Virus record (IMG/VR): IMGVR_UViG_2918249483_000002
Coordinates: 1-64,000 of that record
DNA: 64,000 bases
Strand: one strand, 5' to 3'
Origin: a virus
Lineage: Duplodnaviria; Caudoviricetes
Shown here: one piece after another, positions 11,339-41,346 of the stretch
How the letters are laid out: the number at the start of each line of letters is the position of its first letter
Numbering within the stretch: position 1 is the first letter of the stretch
The notes under the pieces: model-generated
What the model was told of the DNA's origin: nothing
What the model saw: the letters and a program-made list of their open reading frames with translations, nothing else
The model's database searches: none
Translations under genes and position numbers: made by a program

Positions 11339-11672
11339 CCTCAGCTTGAGAGGTGGCGACCCGGGCCTGAAGGCTGCGCAGTGCGACCAGCTTGCGCTCC
11401 GTGTCGGCGATGTCGGTGGCGACCTGCTCGGCGATGGCGCTGACTGGCCAGACCGACAGGCCCTCTACATCGATGTACCCGCGGGCGGTGGTGGCGTTGA
11501 AAATCCCGGCCTCGGCCAGATCGCGCGTGTAGCCCTGCGCTTTCGGCCGGAACCAGCCTCCGTGGCGCTTAATCAGGTACAGTCCGTCCTTGATGCGTTT
11601 GCGGGCGACGGCCGTAGCCTCGCGGAGCGTCAGGCTCCCCGGCCGCAGCCTCATGGAAATGCTGCGGCTCAC
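11331..11672 (-). CDS. Hypothetical phage protein
   Basis: GTG start overlapping upstream stop; HGGWFRPKAQGYTRDLAEAG motif. Confidence 0.6.
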   Translation of the reverse strand: MSRSISMRLRPGSLTLREATAVARKRIKDGLYLIKRHGGWFRPKAQGYTRDLAEAGIFNATTARGYIDVEGLSVWPVSAIAEQVATDIADTERKLVALRSLQARVATSQAEDA

Positions 11673-12184: not shown

Positions 12185-12837
12185 CACCGGCCCTCCCCGG
12201 TGTGCTGGCGTCCCTTCTCCAGCCATTCCGCGTGGCGTTTCGCCGTGCCCGGCCAGGGTGCCGGGTAAGAAACGGACCACACGTAGTCTATGCTGTTGGG
12301 CTTCTTGCCAAAGTTGAAGCGCTCGGCGGCCTCGTTCATGGCGTCGGCCATCTTCACGGCGGCGTCGTAGCTTTCGACCGGGTGCAGGTCGTCCGGACCG
12401 CGATGGTGAACGCACCATAGGATCGGCGCCTCCACCACCTCCTGCGGGGCGGCGGCAGGATCGGGAGTCGCCGCCACTTCAAGCGGCGCCGGTGAAGCGC
12501 CCTTGGTGTCACCGATGGTGGGAAGCGGTAGAGCGTCCTTGGCGAGGCGGTAGATCCGTCGCAGCAGGTCGACGGCTTCCTCCGGCCAAGCATGGGCCGA
12601 TGCATAAGCGGCGAGGGCGGAAGCGTCTCGGATCTGTGCGAGAGCCGGGAACATGATCGGGAAGGACCATGCCCAGACCTTCGCTATGCCCTCGGCGTCG
12701 TAGCTGCCCGGCTCCTTGTCGTAGATCGCGCCAACAATCGCGTCGTTGTCGGTCGGCCCAGACCAGATGGTGAAACCGTTGGGGTGGATGCGGACATCGT
12801 AGGGCTGGCGGATGCGGTTGGTGAGGTTGCTTCCCAC
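12184..12837 (-). CDS. Hypothetical phage protein
   Basis: Operon chain; LWCVHHRGPDDLHP motif. Confidence 0.6.
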   Translation of the reverse strand: MGSNLTNRIRQPYDVRIHPNGFTIWSGPTDNDAIVGAIYDKEPGSYDAEGIAKVWAWSFPIMFPALAQIRDASALAAYASAHAWPEEAVDLLRRIYRLAKDALPLPTIGDTKGASPAPLEVAATPDPAAAPQEVVEAPILWCVHHRGPDDLHPVESYDAAVKMADAMNEAAERFNFGKKPNSIDYVWSVSYPAPWPGTAKRHAEWLEKGRQHTGEGR

Positions 12838-13218: not shown

Positions 13219-14046
13219 TCAAGCAGCTGCGGCGGCTGCGGCCTTGGTGGCGGTGATGAGGCGGGTGCGGACGGTGGTGCCGGACGACGCGAACGTGCTC
13301 GGCGGCAGCGCCTCGGCGTCGGCACCGATGGTGTTGAGCCAGAGCCGGAAATCGATGCAGTCGCGCTCGCCGCCTAAGAAGGGATGCTCGCTAACGATGG
13401 CGACCAGACGGCCGCCGTCGCGCAGCAGTTCCCAGGCCGCCCGGATGTGGCGGATGTCCTGGTTGCCGCTGAACGGCGGGTTCATCGCAACGGCGTCGAA
13501 CCGGCTGCCCATGCGATGCTGCCGCTTGCCCCAGAGCAGGAAGTCGGAGAGGTGGACACCGATGACGTCGAGGCCGCGCAGAACTTCAGAATTCTCCGGA
13601 TCGATCTCCACGGTGACGACACGGGCACCGCGGTCGAGCAACGGCTTCACCAGCCGGCCGTGGCCGGCGCTCGGCTCCAGCACGAGGTCGCCGTGCTTGA
13701 TGCCGACCAGTTCGGCCATGCGCTCGGCCAGCGGTTCCGGCGTCTCGAAGAACTGCAGTGTCTGCTTGCGGTCCGGAACCCTCTCGACGCCAACAGTCAG
13801 GGCGGCGGCCAGAGCTTTGCTCGGATCGGTCGGGAAGACATGCCCGCCGACCTTCCGGTTCCAGGCGCCGCCCATGGCTTCCAGCGCCTTGTTGACGGCG
13901 GTGTAGACGGGCCGATCGAGCTTGCCGGGCGGCAGGATGATGACGTTGCCCTGCACGGTGGCGCGGCCGAGGATGTCGGCGGCGATCGGTGGGACGTTGA
14001 CGAATTTGGTGGTCAATGGATGGCTCCAAGTTCGGCCATGGCGCAT
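13219..14046 (-). CDS. Class I SAM-dependent (N6-adenine-type) DNA methyltransferase
   Basis: QFFETP, VLEPSAGHG (motif I), MNPPF (motif IV), F..SGT.V.T; exact start uncertain. Confidence 0.88.
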   Translation of the reverse strand: MRHGRTWSHPLTTKFVNVPPIAADILGRATVQGNVIILPPGKLDRPVYTAVNKALEAMGGAWNRKVGGHVFPTDPSKALAAALTVGVERVPDRKQTLQFFETPEPLAERMAELVGIKHGDLVLEPSAGHGRLVKPLLDRGARVVTVEIDPENSEVLRGLDVIGVHLSDFLLWGKRQHRMGSRFDAVAMNPPFSGNQDIRHIRAAWELLRDGGRLVAIVSEHPFLGGERDCIDFRLWLNTIGADAEALPPSTFASSGTTVRTRLITATKAAAAAAA

Positions 14047-23849: not shown

Positions 23850-24720
23850 CCCGGTGTTGATGAGAAAGTCTTCCACTGCCTCAACCCCCACCCGGCGGCC
23901 GGGTAAGGGGGTGGGGGAAGAGGAGCCGATCAGGTAGGCGATCGGGCACTTTCAGCGTTTAGGTGACCGGTTTTCCCCGCCGGCTGGGGGCTCACGATGT
24001 CCGACGTGGCCCGGCTCAGGAATGCCGCCATCATCTGAGAAGAGGCGGGGCCTATTGACCGCAGCCGGGCCGGCATGCCGGCGGGCTGCAGCGTTCGGCC
24101 CCGCATGCGGAGCCGGGGCGATCGGGCGGCGCTCGCGGCACCAAATGGATCAGGGTATCGGAGGAGGGGAGGGGCCATCCAGCGGGCTCCCACGGCAGCG
24201 GGGCAATCGGTCGGAGCAGGTCAGAACCCAATCCCAACAGGTCAGGCCCAACCAGCGAGATACAGGCGAAGGTCAACAGCGAACGCATCATCCACACCCC
24301 ATCCGCCGCGCATCCCACCGTGTCGGCATCGGTCCCAAGGGCGAACCCCTCTGACGCCTCAAGCCCCACCGTTGCCGGTAAGGGGCTGGGAAGGTGGCCG
24401 GCGCCCCGCGAAAAGCACCGGCCGGATCCGACACACGAACGCCGCAAGAGCCCTTTCATTGGTTGATGCGCCGTCCAGGTTCCGGTGGATGGCAATCCGG
24501 GCTGAGGGGCTCCAGCTCGGTGCGGGGGGCACACGCGCAGGGGAAGCGGAGCCGGGGCCCCTCATTGCCCCAACCCCGCCCCAGCCATCACAGCCGGGAG
24601 CGGGGTTGGAGGCCGGAACTTCCATCCGGCTGCCGATGCGCTCGGTCTGCGAGCCTTGCCGAAGGGCCTGTGTGTCGGCGGTGATGCGGGGCGGAGCTGG
24701 CCGCCACCGCGCGGTATCTT

Positions 24721-24795
24721 TCGGGGCGGTGGGATTCGAACCCACGACCTGCGGCACCCAAAGCCGCTGCGCTATCCAGGCTGCGCTACACCCCG
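24721..24795 (-). tRNA. tRNA-Pro(TGG)
   Basis: CGGGGTG/CGCCCCG acceptor stem, GCGGC-TTTGGGT-GCCGC anticodon arm, GGTTCGAATCC T-loop; no encoded CCA. Confidence 0.93.
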
Positions 24796-24798
24796 ATC

Positions 24799-24874
24799 TG
24801 GTGGAGCCTGTCGGGATCGAACCGACGACCTCCTGCTTGCAAAGCGGGCGCTCTCCCAACTGAGCTAAGGCCCC
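24799..24874 (-). tRNA. tRNA-Ala(TGC)
   Basis: GGGGCCT/AGGCTCC acceptor with G3:U70, TAGCTCAGTTGGGAGAGC D-arm, TTTGCAA loop, GGTTCGATCCC, encoded CCA. Confidence 0.93.
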
Positions 24875-25385
24875 AGGTGCCGGGCCTTGCATCCCGGCTG
24901 TCCGGTCTCTCACCGGCTTGTGGGCCTCCTCCGCGCGATCTTCAGCGGCTCCCCGCGCGGCCGTGACCTCCATCATCTCCCGACATCCGGTTACCCGGAG
25001 CGGGCCGGCTTGCGCCGAAGTGGCCCTGACGCGTCCCCGCTGGCGGTTGTCAGGAGCCTGCACTGGCTTAAGCCCGACCCCACCGGCAGGCTGGGGTAAC
25101 GGGCTTGGGGGAAGATGCCGCCGGGCTGGGGGTGAGCCGCCCGGCGGCAGAGGTTTGGGAGGAAACGCCCGTGTGGGCAGGTGCACGCGCCGAGGCGCGA
25201 AACCGATGGGTCAGACTCCGTCGAGGGAAACGTCGGGATTGGACGAGGCTTGGCGCTGACGTGCTGCCCGCTTCCGAGCCGTTTTCCTGTTCGCCACGTA
25301 GCGCGGATCCTTGCGCGATTTCCGTCGTGCGGCTCGGGCCTGGGAAGCGGTGCTCATGTCTTCGTCCTCGCTCCGATGTTGATGA

Positions 25386-25580
25386 TCAGGCGCAGGCCAG
25401 GTCGAGATACCGGCCGTGGAGTTCGTCGGCGAACTTGCTGTAGCTCTCGCTCGGCTCCCCGAGCGCTTCCGCGACCGCCGCCATGCTCGCGGAGAACGCC
25501 GCAGCCTTGCGCAGATTGCGAAGGCCGCCGTCGTTCAGAACCGACAGCACGGTCACCTCGGTGTCGCCGATGGTCCTCAT
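25386..25580 (-). CDS. Hypothetical protein
   Basis: ATGA overlap with upstream gene. Confidence 0.55.
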   Translation of the reverse strand: MRTIGDTEVTVLSVLNDGGLRNLRKAAAFSASMAAVAEALGEPSESYSKFADELHGRYLDLACA

Positions 25581-25804
25581 GCGGCTCTCCGATAGGCGGC
25601 CAGTTCGGCATCGCGCAGCGCCATCAGCTTCTCGCGCAGCGCCGGCCAGTCCTCGTGCTGCAGGTCCGGCATCCGCTCGACAGCCGGGATCACGATCCCG
25701 TTGTCGAAATGCCAGCTGTCATCGTGGATTGCCGCGGGGAGCCAGACCGAAGCCCAGAGCAGAAGCATCAGGTCGTCGTTCGAGATCAGCGGGCCGCCCA
25801 TCAC
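25577..25804 (-). CDS. Hypothetical protein
   Basis: Coupled to flanking genes. Confidence 0.55.
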   Translation of the reverse strand: MMGGPLISNDDLMLLLWASVWLPAAIHDDSWHFDNGIVIPAVERMPDLQHEDWPALREKLMALRDAELAAYRRAA

Positions 25805-26367
25805 GCGGCCTCGCCGAACAGCGGCGCCGACCGCTGGGCTTCGAGGTCACCCCGGGTGATCCACGCCATGCTCCGTTGCGCCGGCGCATTGAAGCTCTGG
25901 TAGACGCTGAAGCTGAAGAGCAGGGACTGCGCCGTGCGCAGCGACCACACCACGAACTCGTCACCGCTGAACGCGGCGGGATCGAAATCCGCCCCCGCGT
26001 AGCTGACGCCGTCGATGTTGATGTAGGCGCGGCCGTCGGCGCGCCAGCCGACGACCTTCAGCCCGAGCATCTCGATGTGGAGCGCGTCCTCCGGAACCGC
26101 GGCGGTGCATGGTGCGCCGGAGGCCTGCGGCTTGTTACCGCGCGGATCGTTCGAGCGCAGATGGCTCCGGCGGCGGAGAACCTGCTCGGCGAGGCCGTGG
26201 GCCGCTTGGCAGACGCCGAGAGCGCAGGCCTCGGTCGGATACATTTTCGGCAGAACGTCGCGGAACAGCCCAGTGGAGCCCCCGACCGAAACCATCATGT
26301 CGCTTCCCAACAGGAAGAACGACACGGAGCCAAGCTTGGGGAGGTTTCGGAAGGAGACGGTTTCCAT
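25801..26367 (-). CDS. First gene of leftward (pL) operon, hypothetical
   Basis: GAGG RBS directly downstream of OL operators. Confidence 0.55.
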   Translation of the reverse strand: METVSFRNLPKLGSVSFFLLGSDMMVSVGGSTGLFRDVLPKMYPTEACALGVCQAAHGLAEQVLRRRSHLRSNDPRGNKPQASGAPCTAAVPEDALHIEMLGLKVVGWRADGRAYINIDGVSYAGADFDPAAFSGDEFVVWSLRTAQSLLFSFSVYQSFNAPAQRSMAWITRGDLEAQRSAPLFGEAA

Positions 26368-26413
26368 CTTCGGCTTGCCTCGGTTGGAGTAGCGCTTTTG
26401 ATGGAGTCATGTT

Positions 26414-26461
26414 CGCGATATATCGCGGTGAAGTCAAATGGAAAATCCGCGATTTATCGCG
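26414..26461. promoter_or_regulatory. OL operators / leftward early promoter
   Basis: Palindromes CGCGATATATCGCG (26414-26427) and CGCGATTTATCGCG (26448-26461); TTGACT on minus strand (26437-26432); same motif as OR. Confidence 0.85.
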
Positions 26462-26540
26462 GATGCGACGGTTTGTCGATCTTGCCATAATCAGGTTGTG
26501 CGATCTGCTGATCGCTCGCTCTGAAGTGAGGTATGGTGGG

Positions 26541-27287
26541 ATGGCTGAGCGGCGCAGGCTCGTCAGCGACTTAGCAAAACGACTGGAACTCGATTACGTC
26601 GGATTCGACCGCGTCAGATCGGCCCGCCAGGTCGTTCTGGTGCAAGTCGAGGAATACGAAACGACGGAGCGGGTCTACCGAGTGTCGCTGCGCTGCAGGT
26701 CGGTGGATGGTGGGCGGACGCTGAAGGATTTCCTCTCGAACCGCATCCTAGGCCTAGTCGATCTCGATACCGGCGAGTGTGTCAACGATATCCCGGCCTA
26801 TCTCTGCGACCTGCTGGCCGAAGCTGGGGGCGAATTGCCACGGTACTGGCCAAGGCCGGAACACGACCCGATCCGCAGCACCTCATTGGGTGTGGCGTTC
26901 GATCGACACGGCTACGCAGTGGGTTGGGCGTTCGGGGTTCATTCGTCGTTCCGTAGCGCGCTGGACATCTTGTACTCTGCCGATTCGAAGTCGAGCAACG
27001 GCATCTGGACCCAAGGTATTCCGCCAAGATACGGCTTTGAGGTTGGCGACCTGATGCACTCGCCCGCCCCTTGGGGGCCGCAGACCCGGTATTCGGTTCA
27101 GGTTAAGTCACTGAATGACCAGGAGGTCACGGTATCGTTGATGGTTGTCAATGATCGTCGGGTAATAAGTTCACAAGAACTAACCATGTCGCAATCTGAT
27201 TTTGCGGAGTTGCTGAGAATCGGCATTCCTCAACAGTCTGCAGTAGTTGCGGAGGCTGAGCATCATCTGGAACCCACAGCCCCATAG
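26541..27287 (+). CDS. Protein with N-terminal WYL-like domain
   Basis: LELDYVGFDRVRSARQV ... LRC ... DFLSNRILGLVDLDTGE resembles WYL; unknown C-terminal domain. Confidence 0.65.
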   Translation: MAERRRLVSDLAKRLELDYVGFDRVRSARQVVLVQVEEYETTERVYRVSLRCRSVDGGRTLKDFLSNRILGLVDLDTGECVNDIPAYLCDLLAEAGGELPRYWPRPEHDPIRSTSLGVAFDRHGYAVGWAFGVHSSFRSALDILYSADSKSSNGIWTQGIPPRYGFEVGDLMHSPAPWGPQTRYSVQVKSLNDQEVTVSLMVVNDRRVISSQELTMSQSDFAELLRIGIPQQSAVVAEAEHHLEPTAP

Positions 27288-27325
27288 CCCTCCGCCGCGG
27301 TTATCGGATTAGGCCACTTTTTGAG

Positions 27326-28315
27326 ATGGATGGCATGGGTGATACCGGTTGGATCAGCCGCCTTTTGAGGGCGAGGCAACGACGTTCAGCAGTCACGGTT
27401 GAGCCGCCACAGGCGGAGACGGAGACCGACTCGCTAAAGCGCTATGTGGTGATCGACTGCGAGACGACGGGCTTATCAACGGCCCGGGGCGACCGGATGG
27501 TTAGCTTCGCTGCCATCGAGATCCTTGGGGTAGAGCCATCAGGGCGCAGCTTAAGTCTGATCTTCAACCCTGGCCGAAACTCAGATCCTCGCGCCCGGAG
27601 CGTCCACCGGTTATCCGACCACCTGCTTCGCCATCAGTCGCCGTTCTCATCGAGCCGCGACATAATCCATGACTTCTTGGCGGATGCAGTCATCGTTGGA
27701 CACAACGTCCAGTTCGATCTGTCATTCCTCTCTCACGAGTTCGCCCTATGCGGCTCCCGGTGGCATCAAGGCGCAAGCATCTGCACGCAGGAAGCATTCC
27801 AGGGATTGGGCATGGGGCGGGCGAGCTTAGATGCCGCAGCGGCGCATTTTGACATCGATATCTCCGCTCGCGCAGAATTCCACGGCGCCTTCATCGACGC
27901 GGAGATAACGAGCCAGCTTTTCCAAAGGATGGTGTTGGGGAAGGAGGTGGCGCGCGAAATTGCTCATTTGCCGCCGACTAACTTCGTGGAGCCCCCGCCT
28001 CTCGTGCAGAGCGCGGCAACCACCAAGGCGGGGCACGGTGTCCAGGGACTCGCCTTCGCCATAACCGGCGAGTTGACCAACATGACGCGCGATGAGGCAG
28101 CAGATCTGGTCGAGCGCCTCGGTGGCATATGGCACAAGGCCGTCAAAAAAGACACCGATTTCCTTGTGATCGGCCACGCGCCGGGAAATACGAAAATCGA
28201 GACAGCCGCCGCGCGACGGGCCAGGTATGGCAAGCCGGACAACATCGATGAAGCCCAGTTCTTACGTTTCATCGATTCGTCAGTTCAGGCCAATAATAAT
28301 GTAAGGGTGAAGTAA
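27326..28315 (+). CDS. DEDDh 3'-5' exonuclease (DnaQ-like) fused to BRCT
   Basis: VIDCETTG, GHNVQFD, HGAFIDA; C-term FAITGEL..MTRDEA..L.E.LGG.....V.KDTDFLV.G..PG.TK. Confidence 0.88.
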   Translation: MDGMGDTGWISRLLRARQRRSAVTVEPPQAETETDSLKRYVVIDCETTGLSTARGDRMVSFAAIEILGVEPSGRSLSLIFNPGRNSDPRARSVHRLSDHLLRHQSPFSSSRDIIHDFLADAVIVGHNVQFDLSFLSHEFALCGSRWHQGASICTQEAFQGLGMGRASLDAAAAHFDIDISARAEFHGAFIDAEITSQLFQRMVLGKEVAREIAHLPPTNFVEPPPLVQSAATTKAGHGVQGLAFAITGELTNMTRDEAADLVERLGGIWHKAVKKDTDFLVIGHAPGNTKIETAAARRARYGKPDNIDEAQFLRFIDSSVQANNNVRVK

Positions 28316-28316
28316 T

Positions 28317-28880
28317 ATGGCGGCGACATTCGAAGATATTGGCCTTGATTTATTCATCGAACATTTTCTAGATGGAGTTGTAATCCCCAATCATTACAAG
28401 AAGAAAAAGAAGGAAAAATTAACTTCGATTCGAGAATCTGATCTTCTCCCTATTGCATTATCCAACGGTCGTGCCGCATTTTCCGCCAGAGTTGAGGCAG
28501 GCGAGCAGGTTTGGAATGTATCGTTTACGCAGCACAACCTGCGTGTTTGGGTGAATAAAAACTGGAACACAGAGGCCCCTACGGTAGAGGGCCCTGCCGT
28601 TCGATCGTCCATTGCGAAAGTGTTGGAGGAAATTAGAGTCAAACAATTCATGTCGCCCGAGCAATCGACATGGCTTCTTCAGAGTTTTTGGAATGGGGAG
28701 GAGAGCGCCGCCGGACCCAACCTTGTTGGTGGGAATCTGCCGGGGTGGTTTGAAGAATTGGCCGACCAGTCTCTCATTGTGCCGGCGTTAGGGATGCTTC
28801 GCTGGTGCCTGACGGTAGAGGGGAGTGAGGTGTTCGAAATCCTCCACCGCTCCGTCAGACGCCACGACGCCCCAACATGA
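28317..28880 (+). CDS. Orphan hypothetical protein, AT-richer than flanks
   Basis: Starts 1 nt after exonuclease stop; KKKKK tract. Confidence 0.65.
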   Translation: MAATFEDIGLDLFIEHFLDGVVIPNHYKKKKKEKLTSIRESDLLPIALSNGRAAFSARVEAGEQVWNVSFTQHNLRVWVNKNWNTEAPTVEGPAVRSSIAKVLEEIRVKQFMSPEQSTWLLQSFWNGEESAAGPNLVGGNLPGWFEELADQSLIVPALGMLRWCLTVEGSEVFEILHRSVRRHDAPT

Positions 28881-28916
28881 TCGGGCGGGGAGCTGCTCCA
28901 GCGACAACAGCCAGGG

Positions 28917-29246
28917 TCACGCTGCCGCTGCAATTTCAACCGGCAAGCTGGCGACCGGCGCCGGCTTGGTCGCGCGCCAGAACGCTGCAACAGGGTTGCC
29001 GCAGCCGTGCCCAGCGGCGTCATGGCCGTCATCGGTGGCCGCCTCCAGGAAGTAATGCGCGACGAAGATCCGGACTTCGCTGGCCAGGTTCGGAGCCGGG
29101 AACGCGTCGAGGCCGGAGATCAGGGCGCTGACCGTCACTCCTTCCTTGACCGCGATCTTGTCCAGCGCGCTCCAGATGATGGTCTCCAGGCGCATCGAGG
29201 TCCGCCGGCCGTTCACCATCACGTTCTTCATCACCAGAGCCATCAC
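28917..29246 (-). CDS. Ribbon-helix-helix regulator (RHH_4-like)
   Basis: NVMVNGRRTSMRLE...W.AL..IA..EG.TV..L ... NLASEVR.FV..YF. Confidence 0.85.
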   Translation of the reverse strand: MMALVMKNVMVNGRRTSMRLETIIWSALDKIAVKEGVTVSALISGLDAFPAPNLASEVRIFVAHYFLEAATDDGHDAAGHGCGNPVAAFWRATKPAPVASLPVEIAAAA

Positions 29247-29338
29247 GACCTACCTTGCGAAACAGTTGCATTTGTCGGAGTTTCGATCCGCGAGAGGCGG
29301 CGTCGCAGTGAAGAACTTCACACGCCGCATACGGGACG

Positions 29339-30262
29339 ATGCAGAAAACGAGGTGGATGGTGGGTGGTGCGACAAAAGGCGCGCTCTGGACGCTGGTATC
29401 GGCGCTTTCGTTCATGTGCGCGAACATCCTGATCAAGCACCTGTCCGCGAAACTGCCGGCGCTGGAGATGGCCTTGTTCCGGTCGGCCGGCGGCCTGCTG
29501 ATGGCGTTCGTCGCCTGGCGCGCATTCCTGCACCTCCGCCAGCTCCGCGACCCGCAGTGGCACCTGACCCGCGCGGCGGTCGGCGCCGTCAGCCTGATGG
29601 CTCTGGTCCACGCCTACAGCTCCTTGCCCATCGCCCTGGTGACCGGCTTCATGTATGTCAGGGTCTTGTTGGTCATTCCGATGCAGCGGGTGATCCTGGG
29701 CGAATCCGCCGACCGCCGGGTCTGGATCGCCGCAGGCATCGGCATCGTCGGCGCGCTCATCGCCCTGTGGCCGCGCCTGGTCACCATCGGGACGCCGCAT
29801 TGGAGCTGGGCGGTGGGCTCGCTGATCATCGCGGCCTTCGCGGGGGCGGGTAGCCAAATCTGCATGCGCCGGCTGGCCCGGACCAACCCGGCTACGGTGG
29901 TGGTCGCCGTGTCGGCGATCCTGATCAGCGCCATCGTCGCGATCCCGGCCAGCACCGTCGCCGTTGAGCCGCCGGCCGGCGACCTACCGTGGTTGATTGG
30001 CATGGCGCTGCTGTCCGCCTGCGCGCAGTGGGCAACCGTCCGCGGCTACAAGCATGCCTCCCCGGCGGTGCTGATGCCCGTCACCCTGGTTGACGTGCCC
30101 GTGGCGCTGGTCTCCGGCTACCTGCTGTTCGGCGAGGTGCCGACCGTGCACGCGGCGGTGGGAGCGGCGATCATCATCGCGGCGGCGGTCTACGTCACGC
30201 GGTCGAGTCGGCCCGAGTCGCGGCAGGCGACGGGCTCTTCTCCCGGACGGGTTCTCAGCTAA
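29339..30262 (+). CDS. EamA/DMT family small-molecule transporter
   Basis: ~10 TM helices in two EamA repeats (FRS..G, ILGE......W.A..IG..G...., GYLLFGEVP....VGA.II). Confidence 0.9.
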   Translation: MQKTRWMVGGATKGALWTLVSALSFMCANILIKHLSAKLPALEMALFRSAGGLLMAFVAWRAFLHLRQLRDPQWHLTRAAVGAVSLMALVHAYSSLPIALVTGFMYVRVLLVIPMQRVILGESADRRVWIAAGIGIVGALIALWPRLVTIGTPHWSWAVGSLIIAAFAGAGSQICMRRLARTNPATVVVAVSAILISAIVAIPASTVAVEPPAGDLPWLIGMALLSACAQWATVRGYKHASPAVLMPVTLVDVPVALVSGYLLFGEVPTVHAAVGAAIIIAAAVYVTRSSRPESRQATGSSPGRVLS

Positions 30263-30301
30263 TCGCAGCGCGCAAAGCCAACGTCATAACTTTTTTGGTG
30301 A

Positions 30302-30439
30302 CGCCAGACCGCAACAAGACGTCGCCAGACCATCAAGATCCCAAAAATGGGACGTGGAGCATGTCCAGGTGAATAACATAGTATGCGCGCACCGAATGAT
30401 GGTGAAAATCTCCTATTGTGACCCGTTTGGGTGATGCGC
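30302..30439. promoter_or_regulatory. Candidate regulator-binding sites upstream of PAS-LuxR gene
   Basis: Direct repeat CGCCAGACC at 30302 and 30323 (21 bp apart); palindrome TCCCA-AAAA-TGGGA (30339-30352); near-palindrome ACCCGTTTGGGT-GATGC at 30421. Confidence 0.45.
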
Positions 30440-30487
30440 TCGGATGATTAGGTTGCTAGGCTTGCAGCAACTTAATTCAGCGAGGGC

Positions 30488-31561
30488 ATGCCGATTATGG
30501 CGGCGCTTGATATTCCCGCAGATGCTCCGCCTTCCTTGTCGGAAATGGCTGCGCTCGCCGTCCGTCTCGGGTCGGGCGCCGTGGTCTTCAGCCCTGATGA
30601 TCGGCTTGAGTTCGCCAGCGACCATTTCCGTCGGATGTATGAGTTCTGCGACTTCGGGCGAGGACTGACCTTCGACGACATCCTTCTGGCGTCGTTGGCA
30701 ATGGAGGAGAGGGCCGGCTTCAAACTGCCGGAACCCCCCACGGAAAAGCTGGAACGTACCAAGCGGCGTCGCCGAGTGGAGCGCATGGAGTTTGTCCGTG
30801 AGTTCCCCGTGCCGTTGATGTGCTTGCATTGGATGCACCACAGCGGATGGTCCATCCAGATCAGGGCGGAGCCCAAGCACGTTGGCCTGTCGAGCTTCTT
30901 CGACGCCGACCTGCCTGCCTTCGGCCTTTTGGAGGCCCTTCGTCGTCGAGAAGAACTGTCCCAGCGCGCGGCCGTGCTGGACAGTATCGACCTTGCGGTT
31001 GCGGTACTCGGTCCAGAGGGGGGCGTCAGATATCAAAATGCTGCCTTTGCCGCCCTGGTTGATGCCTCTGATGGGTTGAGGATTGATGATGACGGGCACG
31101 TCTGCGCCGTGGATGCCGGTAGCGCTGACAGGCTTCAGGCGGTCATCGCCGCAGCGGCGTTTGGTCGGCCAAGCGCCAGACAAGTTGCCATGTGCCTCCC
31201 TCGCCAAAGGGGAGAGCCGCACGTCCTTTCGGTGTCCCGCGGTGTAGGGGCCTTGCTCGGATCGGCCGTCCTTATCATCGCTCCCATCTTGCTGGATGTG
31301 GGGACGCTGGCCAGCATCCTCTATCGCGACTTCGGCTTGACCCAAGCGCAGGCGGAGGTCGCCGCCCATGTCGGGGCAGGATTGTCGCCGGATGAGGCGG
31401 CTGAGGCTCTTGGGAAATCGCGCGACACAGCCCGCACTCAGCTCAAAGGTGTTTTCGCAAGACTTGGACAGAATATCGGAGGCAGGACGCAAGCCCGCCT
31501 TACGCGGTTCTCCGCGTTGCTGTCATCGATTTCCGGTGCCGCCCGGCAGCGCGGTTATTGA
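30488..31561 (+). CDS. PAS-PAS-LuxR HTH transcriptional regulator
   Basis: N-term PAS (AVVFSPDDRLEFASDHFRRMY), second PAS (LDSIDLAVAVLGPEGGVRYQNAAF), C-term FGLTQAQAEVA..VGAG.SPDEAAE.LGKS..TARTQLK.VF. Confidence 0.88.
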   Translation: MPIMAALDIPADAPPSLSEMAALAVRLGSGAVVFSPDDRLEFASDHFRRMYEFCDFGRGLTFDDILLASLAMEERAGFKLPEPPTEKLERTKRRRRVERMEFVREFPVPLMCLHWMHHSGWSIQIRAEPKHVGLSSFFDADLPAFGLLEALRRREELSQRAAVLDSIDLAVAVLGPEGGVRYQNAAFAALVDASDGLRIDDDGHVCAVDAGSADRLQAVIAAAAFGRPSARQVAMCLPRQRGEPHVLSVSRGVGALLGSAVLIIAPILLDVGTLASILYRDFGLTQAQAEVAAHVGAGLSPDEAAEALGKSRDTARTQLKGVFARLGQNIGGRTQARLTRFSALLSSISGAARQRGY

Positions 31562-31575
31562 ACAGGGGTTAGTCT

Positions 31576-32031
31576 ATGAACATTGATGATGCTCTGAATG
31601 CAGTCGAGGCCATCGATATGAGCGTTCTGGTATCCGACTTGATCGAGAAGGGTACGGACAGGGCGCGTGCCGAACGCTCGGTGGCCCAATATCGTGAGTT
31701 CTTCGCCACATGCGCTGCTTACCCGGATGCACCTCTCGTCCCGACTCATCTGTGCGATCTTGCTTGGCACGCCCACATGCTCCGCCCCAGCAAGTATGCC
31801 AGGGATTGCATGGCGGTGCTGGGCCACATCATGGATCATGACCCCGGAGTCTATCGCACCGGGCCGTTCCAGGAGGCCTACGATCTGACGCGTAAGTTGG
31901 TTCCGTACGGACACCTGATGCCGGTCGACGCATATGCGCTGGAAAATGAGATGGCCGGGGCTGAGTGTTTCCGCGAACCGAATCAGCGGCCTGATCGCGA
32001 GGACCCACTGTACATCAAGTTCGACGCATAG
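31576..32031 (+). CDS. GRDP/DUF1399-like His-motif protein
   Basis: A.....QYR.F......YP...LVP...CDLAWHAHML.P..Y..DC...LG...DHDP motif; 14 nt after luxR, GGGG RBS. Confidence 0.75.
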   Translation: MNIDDALNAVEAIDMSVLVSDLIEKGTDRARAERSVAQYREFFATCAAYPDAPLVPTHLCDLAWHAHMLRPSKYARDCMAVLGHIMDHDPGVYRTGPFQEAYDLTRKLVPYGHLMPVDAYALENEMAGAECFREPNQRPDREDPLYIKFDA

Positions 32032-32423
32032 CATCAGTCCGCCGACAGGCGGAGGCTACTAAGGCGGTGGGCGCCTTTTCGCTGCGATGGCTTTACCAGA
32101 GCCGTCACCAGAGAAACCAACGGCAATATGCCGGAGGCTGAACTCAACTCCACCCGCACCGCCGGACGGTAAGGGCAAGGATAGACTCAGGGGCGTCCAT
32201 ATGCCGAGTATCTTTTTGCGTTCGAATGTTGCCACTGAAGAGCAATCCTCGCTGTCGAAGCCTTGCGAGGAAATTTCGACCCCTGGCGAAAGGAGCGCTA
32301 TTTCGCATGTATTCGGAGCACGTAGGCTGCGCCAAGGAAGCGCTCCTATCAATTCCCACAACGGATTTGCAAATAGATCCTAATCTTTAGGGTATTGATA
32401 GCTTGAGAGTGGAGTCGCATGTT

Positions 32424-32591
32424 ATGCTAACGGAAGAAGAGCGCGAGTGGATTGTTAGCGAACTCGCAGAATTCATTCTGGATAAAGGCGTAAGGGGGGA
32501 GCGGATCATTATCCGCTGGATTCGTCTGCGGCGTCGCGCGGCTTCCTGCGGCGCTTCCTATTCGCCTGCAGCGCCTTTCCAGTTTCGATAG
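32424..32591 (+). CDS. Possible small ORF convergent with repressor
   Basis: MLTEEEREWIVSELAEFILDKGVRGERIIIRW...; GGAG upstream; overlaps repressor 3' end. Confidence 0.3.
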   Translation: MLTEEEREWIVSELAEFILDKGVRGERIIIRWIRLRRRAASCGASYSPAAPFQFR

Positions 32592-32895
32592 CTTCATCCC
32601 TGGAAGTCATTTTCTCTAATATTGCGTTGGCTGCTTGACGCGCACGTACTCTCTGCTCCCAGTCAGGTTCGCCATATTCAAGCAGTTCAACAACAGTCAT
32701 TCCTGCCGCCTTAGCAATGGCGTGCAGCGTGGAGACCGTCGGATTGCCCCGCATTGCACTCCGAAGAGTGGACTCATTCTTACCCGCCATCTTCGCCCAG
32801 TTGTTAGGCGAATGGAGGCGGTCTCCATGGACCGACATAACGCGGTCAACCACTTCCCCAAGGTCGGGGCGGTCTGAGATTCTATCGTCTACCAT
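32509..32895 (-). CDS. Phage repressor-like HTH protein (128 aa, no S24 peptidase domain)
   Basis: WAKMAGKNESTLRSAMRGNPTVSTLHAIAKAAGMTVVELL XRE HTH; divergent from cro across three operators. Confidence 0.8.
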   Translation of the reverse strand: MVDDRISDRPDLGEVVDRVMSVHGDRLHSPNNWAKMAGKNESTLRSAMRGNPTVSTLHAIAKAAGMTVVELLEYGEPDWEQRVRARQAANAILEKMTSRDEAIETGKALQANRKRRRKPRDAADESSG

Positions 32896-32901
32896 GGCCG
32901 T

Positions 32902-33000
32902 ATTATGGCGCGACCGCGAAAAATCGCGACCGCGCTCTATCGCGCTCTTCTGGCTCGAATGCGATTGACTAACCGCGATATATCGCGGCATTATAGAGCC
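32902..33000. promoter_or_regulatory. OR operators with divergent pRM/pR promoters
   Basis: CGCGAAAAATCGCG (32915), CGCGCTCTATCGCG (32931), CCGCGATATATCGCGG (32973); TTGACT-18-CATTAT ends 6 nt before cro ATG; CATAAT ends 6 nt before repressor ATG. Confidence 0.85.
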
Positions 33001-33231
33001 ATGCTTCATATCGACGAATGCGTCCATAAAATCTGTTCCTACGCGAAGGCTAAAGGCTGGAGCGCCGAGGAGTATGCGCGCGAAGCGGAGATCCCTCCGA
33101 GCACCGCCCGGGATGTGCTGAAGAACCGTGGGAACGCGACCCGGAAAACGCTGAGGGCGATGGAAGGTGTGGTGCCGCGCGACTTCGAGGCGCCGGCAGG
33201 CGACGTCTCGCCCGAAGGCGAGGACTCATAG
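33001..33231 (+). CDS. Cro-like HTH protein
   Basis: GWSAEEYAREAEIPPSTARDVLK..GNAT.KTL..ME; 76 aa; position in switch. Confidence 0.75.
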   Translation: MLHIDECVHKICSYAKAKGWSAEEYAREAEIPPSTARDVLKNRGNATRKTLRAMEGVVPRDFEAPAGDVSPEGEDS

Positions 33232-33904
33232 ATGCCGATCCTCGCTTCCCCGATCCAACCCACCAAACAGAGGACGGCCGAAAGGTCGAGGCTTTCATGG
33301 GCAGCATGAACCAATTCGTCTGCGCCGTTGCCGGCTTCGTTGCCCGTGTCGGTGTTCAATGGGATGGGTGCCTCACCCAACCAAAGGTCAGGGAAGCTTT
33401 CAGCCTCCCGGCTTGGTCGCCGACCTGGCGCCACTGGCTTCTACTTGCGCCCATTCCCAACGCCTGTGACCGGCTGCCCGGCGAAAATGGCTTCGGCGAG
33501 CGGCATCGCGGCGGAGCCGAGGAGGTGAGCGTCCTGGCTTCCTAACTCGGCTCGCAGATCTCCCTCGGCTTCGTGCGCCAGAACGGTCCGTTCGCCGCCC
33601 GCATCATGCGTCAGGCTTCCAACCCAGGCGCACAGCAACCCCAGCTTACCACGTGGCCAGCATACCGGGCCGGTGGCGGGATAGGGGAGGGCGCAGAAGG
33701 TCGGGGCACCAAGGACAGGATGGGTAACGCCTACCGCCAATTTGGGGCTCCGGTTGGGTGGTGGGAAAGGTGAGCGGGAAGGGTGGTCAATTCCTCCGCC
33801 GCTCACCGGCCGCACCGCGGTGGGGACGCGAGGCGGCGATTCGATGGGCTCATCATTTCGCCAAAATGGCGAGTGCGAAACTTATAATGCACGGGGTTGG
33901 TTAT

Positions 33905-34453
33905 ATGAGAACCAAATGCGAACCTTCCGATGCTGATCTGACCGACCCGGTTCTCAAGATCAAGCACGCGTTCCGCATGCTGGTGAAGCAGGCCGGCGGC
34001 GTCGAGGCTGCGGCGGCCGAAGTCGGCATCAGCATCGCGTCGATCTCCAACTACACCAACCCGAACAAGCCGGACCAAGTCCGTGTCGACGTCATGCACG
34101 CGCTGGAGCGGGCCATCGGCGACCCGGTGATGCTTCGGGTGCTGGCTGACCTGCACGGCTTCGAGCTGACCCCGAAGGCCCCGGCCGACGGGGACGATCA
34201 CCAGGGGCTCGACATCCATCTCCCGGACAGCATGGACGTGACGCTGAAGGCCGCCGAGATCGGGCAGGCCCTGGCCGATGCGATCGAGCGCGGGGTGATG
34301 ACCGAGGAGACGGCTCTCCGCATCGAGGACCGGTGCGGTCGGATCGTGAGCCGCGCCGTGAAGATGCGCGATGTCGCTGCCCGCATCCGGGCCATCGTCA
34401 AGAAGAGCCGGAAGCCGTGGTCCTTGCGTGCCCGCGTCAAGGGAGGCGAGTGA
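33905..34453 (+). CDS. CII-like regulatory protein (start 33866 or 33905)
   Basis: LVKQAGGVEAAAAEVG.S...IS.Y.NPN.PD...VD....LE...GDP..L..LA...GF.L; downstream of cro. Confidence 0.7.
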   Translation: MRTKCEPSDADLTDPVLKIKHAFRMLVKQAGGVEAAAAEVGISIASISNYTNPNKPDQVRVDVMHALERAIGDPVMLRVLADLHGFELTPKAPADGDDHQGLDIHLPDSMDVTLKAAEIGQALADAIERGVMTEETALRIEDRCGRIVSRAVKMRDVAARIRAIVKKSRKPWSLRARVKGGE

Positions 34454-34653
34454 TGGACGGCATCACGAATTCCAAGCCGGCGACGGGCAGCGCGGTGTCT
34501 GCCGAAGCGACCCGCCAGCCAAAGTTTCACGGCGCCGCCCGCGGTGCTGGTGGCCACGCCCACATGCTGGCTGTCGACCTGCCGAGCGAGCTGGGCGGCG
34601 ACGCGATCGCGTCCGAGTGGGGCGGGCCGCAGTTCCAGGTGAACAAGCAATGA
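34453..34653 (+). CDS. Hypothetical protein
   Basis: TGATG coupling, GGAGG RBS. Confidence 0.5.
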   Translation: MDGITNSKPATGSAVSAEATRQPKFHGAARGAGGHAHMLAVDLPSELGGDAIASEWGGPQFQVNKQ

Positions 34654-38320: not shown

Positions 38321-38964
38321 GCGTCGCAATGGAAATCCGTGACGATCACCGGCGTCCGCCGCTCCCGCACTGGCATGCCGCCGGCAAGGCCTGTCGCTGG
38401 TGCGGCTCGGACGATGGCGGCACCGACCAGTTCGGTGGCCACGAATACGCCGTCGGCGGCTACTGGCACGAGGCCTGCCTCACCGCCTACGCCACCGCCG
38501 TCAGCAGCAAGGCGCAGCGGCTCTTCGTCGAAAAGCGCGATCTCGGCCTGTGCGCCGGCTGCGGCGCGAACGCGGAGCGCGCCATGTTTCACGCCATGCA
38601 GAACGATCCGAACCCGCCATTCTACGGCTGGGAGGTGGTTCGCGTCATGAAGCGCTGGATCGATCCGGAGTTCCACTGCGTCGCCAACAGCACCTGGTTC
38701 CGACGCGCCCCGGCACCGGCCGGCGTGGTCGAGAAGCTGCCGCCGTGGATGACGTGGGAGGCGGACCACATCGTCCCGCTCTGGTCCGTCGACCGCACCC
38801 TGCCGTGGGAGGAACTCCAGCGATTCTGGTCGCTCGACAACCTCCAGACCCTTTGCAGCCGCTGCCACAAGCGCAAGTCCGCCAGGGAGGCAGCCGAGCG
38901 CGCGGCGCTGAAGCGCGGACCGGATGCGCAAATGGGCCTGCTGCTGACCGGGAGCGCGGCATGA
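38317..38964 (+). CDS. HNH endonuclease
   Basis: CRWC, RD.GLCAGC, WEADHIVP, LDNLQTLCSRCH..K. Confidence 0.88.
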   Translation: MSVAMEIRDDHRRPPLPHWHAAGKACRWCGSDDGGTDQFGGHEYAVGGYWHEACLTAYATAVSSKAQRLFVEKRDLGLCAGCGANAERAMFHAMQNDPNPPFYGWEVVRVMKRWIDPEFHCVANSTWFRRAPAPAGVVEKLPPWMTWEADHIVPLWSVDRTLPWEELQRFWSLDNLQTLCSRCHKRKSAREAAERAALKRGPDAQMGLLLTGSAA

Positions 38965-39530
38965 CCTTGGTGAACTGGCATTTCGGCGACCTTCGGCCCA
39001 ACCACTACGGCGTGATCTACGCTGATCCGCCCTGGTACTTCGGCACCTTCTCCGACAAGGGTCGCGACCGCTCTGCGGCGTACGATTGCATGTCGCTGGA
39101 AGCGATCAAAGCCCTGCCGGTGGCCGATCTCGCCGCGAAGGATTGTGCGCTCCTGATGTGGGCCATTGACCCGATGCTGCCAGAAGCCTTCGAGGTGCTG
39201 AGCGCCTGGGGGTTCCGCTACAAGACCGTGGGCTTCTACTGGGAGAAGTTGAACGCCGACGGCACGCCTTTCACCGGGCTGGGCTACTGGACACGCGCCA
39301 ATCCCGAACAGTGCCTTCTGGCAACGCGCGGCAAGCCGAAGCGGCTGGCCCGAGATGTTCGCCGGCTGATCCGCGCGCCGCGGCGCGCGCATTCCCAGAA
39401 GCCCGACGAAGTCCGAACCCGCATCGAGCGACTGCTGCCTGGTCCCTATTGCGAGCTCTTCGCCCGGACCCGGCCGGATGGCTGGGACGTCTTCGGAAAC
39501 CAAACTGATCGGTTCGAGGTGGCGGCATGA
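38961..39530 (+). CDS. MT-A70 family adenine methyltransferase
   Basis: YADPPW, WGFRYKT, GLGYWTRANPE.CLL, HSQKP, ELFAR...GW...GNQ. Confidence 0.92.
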   Translation: MTLVNWHFGDLRPNHYGVIYADPPWYFGTFSDKGRDRSAAYDCMSLEAIKALPVADLAAKDCALLMWAIDPMLPEAFEVLSAWGFRYKTVGFYWEKLNADGTPFTGLGYWTRANPEQCLLATRGKPKRLARDVRRLIRAPRRAHSQKPDEVRTRIERLLPGPYCELFARTRPDGWDVFGNQTDRFEVAA

Positions 39531-40708
39531 CGGTCAAAATTCTCATTGGTGACTGCCGTGAGCGGCTGACCGATCTGCCGGACGCCTCCGTGCAGTGCTG
39601 CGTCACCAGTCCTCCGTATTTCGGTCTGCGCGACTATGGCGCAGACGGTCAAATCGGTCTGGAGCCGACACCGGAGGAGTTTGTCGACGCCATGGTCGCG
39701 GTGTTCCGCGAGGTGCGGCGCGTCCTACGGGACGACGGCACCCTGTGGCTGAACCTTGGCGACAGCTACGCCAATGATGGAAAGTTCGGCGGAGCCACCG
39801 GGGGCAAGCACAGCAAGTGGCTCCATGGTGGGGAGACCCGGATCGGGCGCGAGAAGCGGCGGACAGGCCTGAAGCCGAAGGATCTTATCGGGGTCCCGTG
39901 GCGCGTGGCCTTCGCTCTCCAGTCTGATGGCTGGTATCTGCGTTCTGACATCATCTGGCACAAGCCGAATCCGATGCCGGAGAGCATCAACGATCGGCCG
40001 ACGAGCGCGCACGAGCACGTCTTCCTCCTGACCAAGAGCGATCGCTATTTCTACGATGCAGATGCAATCCGAGAGAATGCTGAGGGGGCGGAGGATGCCG
40101 GCAAAGGCAAGTCGCGATACAACTTCAAGCGTTCGGGGTCGAAACGCGGGGTGCCGCTGACGCCAGATGCAAATTGCGGAACGCACCGGTCTGACCGGAT
40201 GGCGACGGATGTCGCGCCAACCCGGAACGCTCGCAATGTTTGGACCATCGCAACCCGGCCGTTTGCGGAGGCGCACTTCGCCACCTTCCCGCCCGATCTT
40301 GCCGAAATCTGCATCAAGGCAGGCTCCTCGGCCCGTGGCTGCTGCGCATCCTGCGGCTCGCCATGGGGGCGTGTTCGTGGCGAGCCTGTGCCTGTCGAAG
40401 GCCGAGGCGCTGGGAATGGCTTCGTCCGACCTGAGCGGCTGACGATGGGGGGGCGGGGCGTAGAGGAGGCGTGGACGCCGACGGACCGCCCAACGGTTGG
40501 CTGGCGCCCCTCATGCTCCTGTGCGGAGGCTGAACCCATGCCCTGCGCAGTCCTGGATCCCTTCGGAGGCGCCGGCACCACCGGTCTCGTTGCCGATCGG
40601 CTCGGTCGCAACGCTATGCTCATCGAACTGAACCCGGAGTACGCCGCCATGGCGGAGCGACGGATTCGTCGCGACGCTGGTCTGTTCGCACAGACGGAGG
40701 CGGCATGA
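39527..40708 (+). CDS. N4-cytosine/N6-adenine DNA methyltransferase (beta class)
   Basis: VTSPPYFGLRDY, IIWHKPNPMPES, AHFATFP, VLDPFGGAGTT, IELNPEY. Confidence 0.93.
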   Translation: MTVKILIGDCRERLTDLPDASVQCCVTSPPYFGLRDYGADGQIGLEPTPEEFVDAMVAVFREVRRVLRDDGTLWLNLGDSYANDGKFGGATGGKHSKWLHGGETRIGREKRRTGLKPKDLIGVPWRVAFALQSDGWYLRSDIIWHKPNPMPESINDRPTSAHEHVFLLTKSDRYFYDADAIRENAEGAEDAGKGKSRYNFKRSGSKRGVPLTPDANCGTHRSDRMATDVAPTRNARNVWTIATRPFAEAHFATFPPDLAEICIKAGSSARGCCASCGSPWGRVRGEPVPVEGRGAGNGFVRPERLTMGGRGVEEAWTPTDRPTVGWRPSCSCAEAEPMPCAVLDPFGGAGTTGLVADRLGRNAMLIELNPEYAAMAERRIRRDAGLFAQTEAA

Positions 40709-41346
40709 AGCGCCAACCCAGCCCCGCCGCAGAATTGACCGAGTTCGCCGAAGGTCGTCGTTATGCCACCATCATGGCGGACCCCCCGTGGCGGTTCATG
40801 AATAGCACCGGGAAGGTCGCGCCGGAGCACAAGCGCCTGTCCCGCTACAGCACGATGGCGCTGGAGGAGATCTGTGCGCTGCCGGTGGCGGACATCACCG
40901 CGTCGACCGCGCACCTTTACCTCTGGGTCCCGAACGCCCTGTTGCCGGAGGGCCTGCGCGTCCTTACCGCTTGGGGGTTCGAGTACAAGACCAACCTCGT
41001 CTGGCACAAGGTACGCCAGGACGGCGGCTCCGACGGGCGCGGGGTGGGCTTCTACTTCCGCAACGTGACGGAGCTGCTCCTGTTCGGCGTGCGCGGCAAG
41101 AAGGCCCGCACGCTCGATGCCGGCCGCCGCCAGGTCAACCTGTTCGCGACGCGCAAGCGCGAGCACAGCCGGAAGCCGGACGAGCAATACGACCTGATCG
41201 AGGCGTGCAGCCCCGGTCCTTACCTGGAAATGTTCGCGCGATTCCCGCGCGCCGGCTGGTCGCAGTGGGGGGATCAAGCCCCTGACGATGCGACGGCGCT
41301 GGATCCGCTTCTCCTGAATCCCTGCCAATTGGAGGTCGCGCTGTGA
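40705..41346 (+). CDS. Second MT-A70 family adenine methyltransferase
   Basis: ADPPWRF.N.TGKVAPEH.RL.RY, GVGFYFRNVTE, HSRKPDE, EMFAR. Confidence 0.92.
   Translation: MKRQPSPAAELTEFAEGRRYATIMADPPWRFMNSTGKVAPEHKRLSRYSTMALEEICALPVADITASTAHLYLWVPNALLPEGLRVLTAWGFEYKTNLVWHKVRQDGGSDGRGVGFYFRNVTELLLFGVRGKKARTLDAGRRQVNLFATRKREHSRKPDEQYDLIEACSPGPYLEMFARFPRAGWSQWGDQAPDDATALDPLLLNPCQLEVAL

Follow-up and report, generated by a model that had tools for sequence, protein, structure and literature searches.

What are a membrane transporter, a sensory regulator and a small protein with a conspicuous His/Asp motif doing among the immunity genes of a phage? The question is raised by IMG/VR virus record IMGVR_UViG_2918249483_000002 (Duplodnaviria; Caudoviricetes), whose first 64,000 nucleotides, referred to here as the window, come from the start of contig C27 (84.7 kb) of genome G000. 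A preliminary description of the window had singled out three co-oriented genes, encoding an EamA-family transporter, a LuxR-type regulator with two PAS domains and a GRDP-like protein, together with a divergent gene for a ribbon-helix-helix (RHH_4) protein, and had proposed that they form a self-contained precursor–exporter–receptor circuit for the choice between lysis and lysogeny. All four open reading frames (ORFs) were confirmed (Table 1). The first part of the proposal has stood up better than the second: co-occurrence of the genes and tandem core motifs in homologs speak for a precursor, an exporter and a receptor, whilst the part specific to the phage was not borne out. The four genes constitute an accessory cassette of Azospirillum, the conserved core of which is the pair of luxR and GRDP-like genes, and in this phage the cassette is an accessory set captured from the host gene pool as variable cargo, lodged between OL-like and OR operators. 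Our tentative explanation is that it encodes a multi-core precursor of the RiPP kind (ribosomally synthesized peptides modified post-translationally), the LuxR sensor of its product and an exporter.

An Azospirillum accessory cassette carried as phage cargo

Matches to the GRDP-like protein were found in 59 of 130 family genomes and 53 of 68 genus genomes, and the source names of the close homologs read Azospirillum. At 28 of 31 loci (±1.5 kb) the GRDP-like gene has a PAS-LuxR regulator gene as its immediate neighbour in the same orientation, in either gene order and over pairs that have diverged to 22–40% identity; L012, L018 and L032 are the exceptions. EamA, LuxR and GRDP-like genes are found together in 11 of 20 loci (±10 kb), with EamA lying 3.5 kb off in one more, and the EamA genes of these homologous cassettes show 65–82% identity to that of the window. 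The expectation that the three genes would recur as neighbours elsewhere was thereby upheld. The RHH_4 gene is only loosely tied to the cassette: its homologs directly adjoin EamA in L033, L038 and L044 and lie about 4 kb off in L035–L039. These four families are the only ones common to the diverse loci. Genome G000 itself contains another full cassette of EamA, PAS-LuxR and GRDP-like genes on contig C24 (locus L051, approximately 9866–12449), the proteins of which are 23–39% identical to those of the phage copy, and each of the two full-length LuxR proteins of the window type in this genome is encoded next to a GRDP-like gene.

The notion of a dedicated phage lysis–lysogeny device was not supported by these neighbourhoods, which are mostly non-phage contexts, homologs of the immunity or replication genes of this phage being present at 0 of 20 loci. 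In tblastn searches (E ≤ 1e-3) the 20 loci gave no match to its Rep, Cro, CII, DnaQ-like, orf187, orf392, VRR-NUC-like or clamp proteins. Ten sampled flanking genes, five of them without a Pfam match, include no phage structural or immunity gene; among them are genes for Lon, an MCP chemoreceptor, a Toprim topoisomerase, UmuC and a YspA-like protein. Comparison of the contig with the homologous loci by tblastx was noisy at the given G+C content, and the only consistent recurrence was that of the cassette and of UmuDC-like genes. A CII homolog was found in 3 of the 130 genomes, G000 counted and G010 among them. The G+C content at third codon positions (GC3) is alike in the window and in other genomes, at 0.79–0.92 for EamA and 0.61–0.68 for LuxR in 10 of the 12 loci in which both were measured; L041 and L044 depart from this.

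The variability of the segment is seen in a relative of the phage. A 95.6-kb contig in the 10-contig assembly of genome G010 (G010:C8) is collinear with 33.9–84 kb of contig C27, and its positions 90.5–91.4 kb match 21.3–22.2 kb of the window. Since G010:C8 matches on both sides, the intervening 22.2–33.9 kb of the window (11.7 kb carrying the tRNAs, a DnaQ-BRCT gene, the cassette, rep and cro) is replaced there, by about 4.2 kb, and no GRDP-like match was found anywhere in genome G010. Searches of viral sequences were similarly unproductive: blastn of 28900–33100 against a phage collection gave no match, a scan of viral contigs gave two weak loci only (28–29% identity), and a fold search of BFVD returned giant-virus GRDP-like proteins only, with no bacteriophage match.

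The placement of the cassette between OL and the repressor gene, also part of the preliminary description, is supported by the distribution of the palindrome CGCGA-N4-TCGCG. Four exact copies are present in the 64 kb, against 0.61 expected, a number reached in 0 of 100 shuffles, and they fall into two clusters only, which flank the cassette. When one mismatch is allowed the count is 14 against 13.6 expected, which is chance level, and the operator signal is for this reason the clustering of the exact copies. From the stop codon of the GRDP-like gene (32031) to the 3' end of the repressor-like ORF (32509) we measured 477 bp, within the 500 bp that had been given for this interval.

The GRDP-like protein and its regulator

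The match of the GRDP-like protein to PF07173 stands just above the cut-off (22.8 bits against 22.7), a PF27765 (UCP032817-like) label was precomputed for it, and PF07173 is present in 96–98% of the members of the Atlas clusters. Both features by which the protein had originally been recognized, the motif D..WHAH..Y..DC..DHDP and a Cys-bearing tail, were found, and with its WHxH...Y..DC...H.P block the protein belongs to the GRDP-like/UCP032817-like family. Across 19 Azospirillaceae homologs, residues G26, R40, F42, W64, H65, Y74, G83, H88 and C131 are invariant, whilst D61, H67 and P90 are shared by 90% or more. In an alignment of 71 sequences that includes distant relatives, D61, W64, H65, H67, C78, P90 and C131 are conserved in at least 90%, with Y74 and H88 invariant.

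The core motif around Cys131 is present in tandem in homologs, as expected of a RiPP precursor: AGAECFRPP is found three times, GAACYLS four times, AGAGCF six times, and APSLCYVAGI and AEQCW twice each. A paralog on contig C31 of the same genome (L032:1357-2055:+), which is the third GRDP-like gene of G000, has nine copies of ADCLREAK, and no LuxR of the window type lies within ±10 kb of it. The core of the C24 protein is single and differs from that of the phage copy (AAACNRPAEPGEGDEWPL). Cyanobacterial, actinobacterial and Patescibacteria homologs follow a like pattern, with the unit AACADLPI and its variants, for example, present twice. A profile search of 1.84 billion representative proteins gave 14768 members of the family at E ≤ 1e-3 and 5296 at E ≤ 1e-10. 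Tail statistics were drawn from 149 of the top-ranking matches, of which 104 are single-domain proteins of up to 260 residues and the remaining 45 are longer proteins, each with two or three matched stretches. Among the 104 short proteins a tail Cys is present in 98 and an exact Cys-containing 5-mer recurs in 24, each family of recurring 5-mers having a Cys-bearing one. The gammaproteobacterial protein L058:8004-8903:+ has about 15 tandem units of the type AKTAYSGRVAS, with Tyr and no Cys, so the repeated core is not always Cys-based.

The AlphaFold2 (AF2) model of the GRDP-like protein of the window has a predicted local distance difference test (pLDDT) score of 95.3 and a predicted template modelling (pTM) score of 0.90, with confidence above 90 through residue 140. 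Beta-bridges join tail residues 128 and 133 to residues 54 and 57 of a conserved LVPT strand, at pLDDT above 90, and this strand leads into the helix bearing D61, W64, H65 and H67. The core motif of the tail is thus predicted to dock on the domain beside the conserved His/Asp cluster D61/H65/H67/H88, with C78. Of the docked tail and the metal site envisaged in the preliminary description, the former appears in the model, on the His-cluster domain, and the latter is putative. Taken with the presence of Cys131 in 19 of 19 homologs and with the tandem repeats, the predicted docking strengthens the earlier suggestion that the Cys tail may be a substrate or precursor. Foldseek found no PDB fold match to the model (best E 3.3), and the family profile found no sequence relative in the PDB (best E 0.75).

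Because Pfam gave only sub-threshold matches (PAS_8, PAS_4 and HTH) for the regulator, with GerE not matched, its identity was examined by structure and profile. An AF2 model built with 16 homologs as input (pLDDT 81.7) has two PAS-like domains, with the five-stranded antiparallel sheet and flanking helices of this fold, followed by a helical C-terminus. When compared with the PDB by Foldseek it matched the tandem PAS proteins DosP, FixL and PpsR (E 1e-8 to 1e-5), phage VqmA (7dwm, E 2.3e-5) and EL222, and a profile of the 16 homologs matched the helix-turn-helix (HTH) domains of VraR, RcsB, GerE and VpsT at positions 281–337 (E 1.8e-6). The label PAS-PAS-LuxR is confirmed by these predictions, the protein having the attributes both of a two-domain PAS sensor and of a GerE-type HTH regulator. 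The transporter has the two EamA repeats (about 10 transmembrane helices) of the EamA/DMT family (PF00892) and scores 49 bits against TIGR00950, under the cut-off of 230 and too low to assign a substrate.

A candidate binding site for the regulator lies upstream of its own gene. Alignment of the window with L033 and L034 identifies ACCC[GA]TTTGGGT as a conserved block at −59 to −71 upstream of luxR, and 9 of 17 loci, namely these three and six more, have a CCC-N4-GGG palindrome between −54 and −84, four of the nine coming from near-identical genomes. Within the 64 kb there is no second exact copy of the box, and allowing up to two mismatches gives 6 sites against 6.4 expected.

Several features of the wider family deserve mention. 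A transmembrane segment combined with a Gly/Cys-rich tail is seen in some GRDP-like relatives; the idea that GRDP-like proteins are TIGR04222 proteins was rejected, with 0 of 8 matching, these forms included. Ala-Ala C-termini are strongly enriched among the 104 short proteins (21 have them and 35 end in Ala; Ala frequency 0.104 in proteins P0007–P0155). ssrA-like C-terminal degrons have similar Ala-Ala endings. Eukaryotic proteins combine the GRDP-like domain with SUMO/Rad60-SLD or ubiquitin-like domains, and giant viruses also have it.

What the cassette may encode

According to the explanation that we tentatively prefer, the GRDP-like protein would be a multi-core precursor of the RiPP type, the core or cores of which would be matured at Cys, possibly in cis by the metal-binding-like domain. 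The product would be released, then exported through EamA in the subfamily that has this carrier. It would be detected by the cognate LuxR through its PAS domains, and LuxR would in turn feed back, positively or negatively, on its own operon via the palindrome upstream of luxR. A precursor–receptor pair with feedback is proposed because the units are tandem and have a single Cys each, the regulator gene adjoins, paralogous pairs have differing cores and luxR is preceded by the palindrome. Action of the His-cluster domain on the docked Cys is proposed because no modifying enzyme is conserved nearby and because PF05114 (MNIO) has no match in this genome, which is 100% complete; an MNIO acting in trans was rejected on the same ground. 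For the phage, the cassette would be lysogen-expressed cargo from the host gene pool, and a lysogen may make or hear a strain-specific signal.

A number of points weigh against this explanation. The LuxR and GRDP-like pair has no conserved neighbour that is a modifying enzyme, a protease or a peptide exporter, the dedicated modifying enzyme of a RiPP cluster being absent from the four families that the loci share. The pairing is also non-exclusive: of 15 full-length LuxR proteins of the window type in six genomes, about 8 adjoin a GRDP-like gene (found with a single-protein GRDP query), and outside Azospirillaceae the window type of LuxR is present within ±8 kb in 0 of 20 loci. In the window protein the core is present only once. 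Cys131 may contact the His cluster, to judge from the model, and a Cys docked on a conserved His/Cys site could simply belong to a metal site with a structural or sensory role; the tails of many relatives are rich in Cys and Gly and resemble metal binders. Carriers of the EamA type usually transport small metabolites, not peptides, a preference that by analogy would count against peptide export. More generally, everything beyond gene content is inference.

A broader form of the proposal is that single-domain bacterial GRDP-like proteins are self-contained RiPP precursors, and that their products in Azospirillum are the signals of a quorum-sensing-like LuxR-PAS family with strain-specific cores, of which one circuit was captured by a phage. 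We consider this unlikely. If true, a helical metal-site domain would mature Cys-centred cores fused to its own C-terminus, in a family of thousands of representatives spanning phyla, and the captured circuit could couple host-type signalling to prophage behaviour.

The strongest competitor, which we regard as somewhat unlikely, is a sensor–partner pair that releases no product. The GRDP-like protein would then be a metal- or redox-responsive accessory protein that modulates the PAS-LuxR regulator or is controlled by it, its tail Cys capping a His-bound metal (a 'cysteine switch'), and efflux through EamA would be the regulated output. Conservation of the His, Asp and Cys residues, the docking of the Cys motif on the domain in the model and the Cys/Gly-rich tails of many relatives are all consistent with this, a regulator beside a transporter is a common efflux arrangement, and the Ala-Ala C-termini would fit regulated proteolysis. 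However, it is not evident what a switch with one site would do with two to nine near-identical tandem units, each with a single Cys and conserved flanks, and EamA is absent from many LuxR and GRDP-like pairs.

The multi-core evidence applies equally to a RiPP-type product with a role other than signalling, for instance an antimicrobial or a metal chelator, with LuxR as pathway regulator and EamA serving export or self-protection. Copper-chelating RiPPs modified at Cys are known (PMC12452194), and the GRDP-like homolog of locus L057 lies beside a resistance-like set of genes (see below). Against this, near-obligate pairing with a ligand-sensing PAS regulator and the occurrence of divergent paralogous pairs in one genome fit a signal and its receptor better, the genome lacks an MNIO enzyme and no immunity gene is conserved, and we judge a non-signal product to be quite unlikely.

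The proposal from which this work set out, that the trio makes, exports and senses a signal, with LuxR driving induction or lysogeny via an antirepressor in the manner of VqmA–Qtip, now appears decidedly improbable. VqmA has a single PAS domain and an HTH domain and binds 3,5-dimethylpyrazin-2-ol (DPO); the form found in vibriophage VP882 activates an adjacent antirepressor gene. As in VP882, a gene for a PAS protein with a LuxR-type HTH is carried by a phage near its immunity genes, and the fold match of the LuxR model to phage VqmA was noted above; in the present case, however, the regulator has two PAS domains and 357 residues, its partners are a GRDP-like Cys-tail protein and EamA, and the system is mainly chromosomal or plasmid-borne in Azospirillum. 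The only support for such a switch is location, the cassette lying within the immunity region, with OL-like operators on one side, OR operators on the other and the repressor gene 477 bp away. In its favour one might add that the LuxR model resembles phage VqmA and that no peptidase domain was detected in the repressor-like protein by Pfam, so that induction may need an antirepressor. Yet all 20 homologous loci have the cassette in a non-phage context, the collinear relative in G010 does without the segment, and viral sequences yielded only the weak or giant-virus relatives mentioned above. The sole candidate LuxR box in the window is the one upstream of luxR, sites with up to two mismatches being at expectation, no Qtip-like or antirepressor-like ORF adjoins luxR, and the 477-bp spacer has no ORF with a coding signal. 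A lysis–lysogeny role of the cassette is possible.

Finally, that four unrelated accessory genes co-travel by chance is very improbable: it would be in keeping with the location of the loci in accessory regions of low G+C, but adjacency in 28 of 31 loci, over such diverged pairs and in both gene orders, speaks against it.

The preferred reading, a precursor with its sensor and exporter, has partial parallels amongst known systems. In RRNPP/arbitrium-type systems the receptor gene adjoins the propeptide gene. Here too a sensor gene adjoins a gene with a short, variable C-terminal core, and paralogous pairs with differing cores are found in one genome. Unlike RRNPP receptors, the regulator is a PAS-LuxR and not a tetratricopeptide repeat (TPR) protein, the core follows a conserved His-cluster domain of 115 residues, and the proposed export route is a DMT carrier; an AimR–AimP–AimX arrangement is not present, the N-terminus of the GRDP-like protein being a helical domain with no signal-peptide-like segment by inspection. 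In plant BURP-domain cyclases and borosins, as far as the accessible text of the sources goes, modifying domain and core peptide(s) are part of one polypeptide (PMC12186524; 10.1101/2021.12.24.474128), and the GRDP-like protein would likewise combine a folded, metal-site-like domain and core(s) in one chain with no separate enzyme nearby; the domain is, however, unrelated in sequence or fold to BURP domains or methyltransferases (Foldseek best E 3.3), and catalysis would have to be assumed. Another parallel is offered by bufferins and TIGR04222 proteins, known or putative MNIO substrates, in which Cys-bearing segments at the C-terminus have likewise been proposed to undergo post-translational modification (PMC12452194).

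Lambda rexAB are accessory cargo genes between OL and the repressor gene. The cassette occupies the same interval, but its genes point towards the repressor gene and are not co-transcribed with it, and its function is unrelated. PAS-LuxR regulators, EamA carriers, multi-core RiPP precursors and immunity-region cargo are thus all known kinds. In the open-access literature we found no description of the Cys-core architecture of bacterial GRDP-like proteins, of the coupling of GRDP-like proteins to LuxR regulators in Azospirillum or of the presence of such a cassette among phage immunity genes. Nor did that literature yield a biochemical function for the GRDP/DUF1399 domain, the papers found being, in their accessible portions, plant phenotype studies. 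The domain spans bacteria to plants, molluscs and giant viruses, and the near-universal Cys tail of the bacterial single-domain forms, the often tandem cores and the predicted docking on the His cluster give the GRDP-like family a concrete, testable hypothesis. Azospirillum is a plant-growth-promoting genus in which the tight pairing with LuxR suggests an undescribed signalling system, and the copy in the immunity region offers a natural case for the borrowing of host signalling cassettes by phages.

Regulators and biosynthetic genes beside GRDP-like genes in other taxa lend side support to the precursor reading. Five loci from closely related genomes of Nostocales (L095, L096, L099, L101 and L102) have the GRDP-like gene convergent with that of a 767-residue HTH-NB-ARC-TPR regulator; the GRDP-like proteins have two tandem units of the AACADLPI type and an RTX-repeat protein is encoded nearby. 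In a low-G+C gammaproteobacterium (L057:217-7183:-) the GRDP-like gene comes first in an apparent operon and is followed by genes for a TauD-like dioxygenase, a methyltransferase, a pentapeptide-repeat protein and a UvrA-like ABC protein. A gene for a TehB-like methyltransferase adjoins the GRDP-like gene in three loci of Patescibacteria type.

The phage element and its immunity region

The element that carries the cassette is a large temperate phage or phage-plasmid. Beyond the window, contig C27 encodes a large terminase (TerL, E 3.7e-163), a portal protein (2.2e-79) and a head–protease fusion (4.3e-207). To the right of the cassette are genes for cro-like, CII-like, VRR-NUC-like nuclease, sliding-clamp, methylase, SNF2 and PAPS-reductase-like proteins, and to its left those for a DnaQ-BRCT exonuclease, two tRNAs, methylases and UmuDC-like proteins. 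The ends of contig C27 have no overlap in common. The window has a ParB-like gene (61772–62581), and the 12 tyrosine integrase matches of genome G000 all lie on other contigs; the element may be an episomal phage-plasmid.

The immunity region has a lambdoid layout, in which rep and cro diverge, the operators are repeated, OL supplies another operator cluster and cII lies downstream, the HTH of the repressor being weakly detected. Sequence matches of the repressor-like protein are weak (HTH_26, E 0.07; phrog_9103, E 0.0074; PDB XRE proteins, E 0.4–1), and its identity rests mainly on position, the operators and the neighbouring CII-like gene.

Table 1. Positions of the cassette genes, sequence motifs and immunity-region features in the window
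Feature	Position	Strand	Basis or remarks
OL-like operator pair, CGCGATATATCGCG and CGCGATTTATCGCG	26414..26461	.	Divergent intergenic region; exact palindromes at 26414 and 26448
RHH_4 ribbon-helix-helix protein, 109 residues	28917..29246	-	Pfam RHH_4 1.7e-16; divergent from EamA
EamA/DMT-family membrane transporter, 307 residues	29339..30262	+	Pfam EamA 4.7e-18 in two stretches; phrog_18638 1.1e-32
Palindrome ACCCGTTTGGGT, candidate autoregulatory box	30421..30432	.	67 bp upstream of luxR start; sole exact site in window
PAS-PAS-LuxR/GerE-type HTH regulator, 357 residues	30488..31561	+	AF2 model, Foldseek against PDB, profile against PDB
GRDP-like/UCP032817-like protein, 151 residues, helical His/Asp-cluster domain and C-terminal tail	31576..32031	+	
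Core motif MAGAECFRE in tail, residues 126-134, with Cys131	31951..31977	+	Cys131 in 19/19; repeated in homologs
Spacer, 477 bp, lower G+C, inverted repeat CTATCAAT...ATTGATAG	32032..32508	.	No convincing ORF
Repressor-like HTH protein, 128 residues from internal ATG	32509..32895	-	Weak HTH matches; adjoins operators
OR-like operators, two exact palindromes plus a copy with a single mismatch	32915..32987	.	Between rep and cro; exact palindromes at 32915 and 32974
Cro-like HTH_3 protein	33001..33231	+	Pfam HTH_3 7.1e-4, below cut-off; divergent from rep
CII-like activator	33758..34453	+	Phage_CP76 2.8e-9; phrog_101 2e-18

Scans for promoters, terminators and repeats gave nothing usable within the cassette. 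Small ORFs within the spacer (32032–32508) have no convincing codon-position G+C signal; one that overlaps the 3' end of the repressor gene, at 32424–32591(+), has a weak coding signal. The spacer also has a patch richer in A+T, which contains the inverted repeat CTATCAAT/ATTGATAG (32346–32401), its arms separated by 40 nt.

In an Rfam search of 24000–34500, thresholds were reached by the two tRNAs only, with no match in the cassette or the spacer. These are a tRNA-Pro (24720–24874) and a tRNA-Ala (25103–25185) inside the phage-like contig, and beside both there is an mmgR/suhB-like match below threshold (31.4 bits against a gathering score of 41). The window also contains UmuC/UmuD-like genes (phrog_1268, E 4.3e-148) and at least five DNA methyltransferase-like genes, at 2245–3986, 13219–14046, 18158–21073 and 38400–41346.

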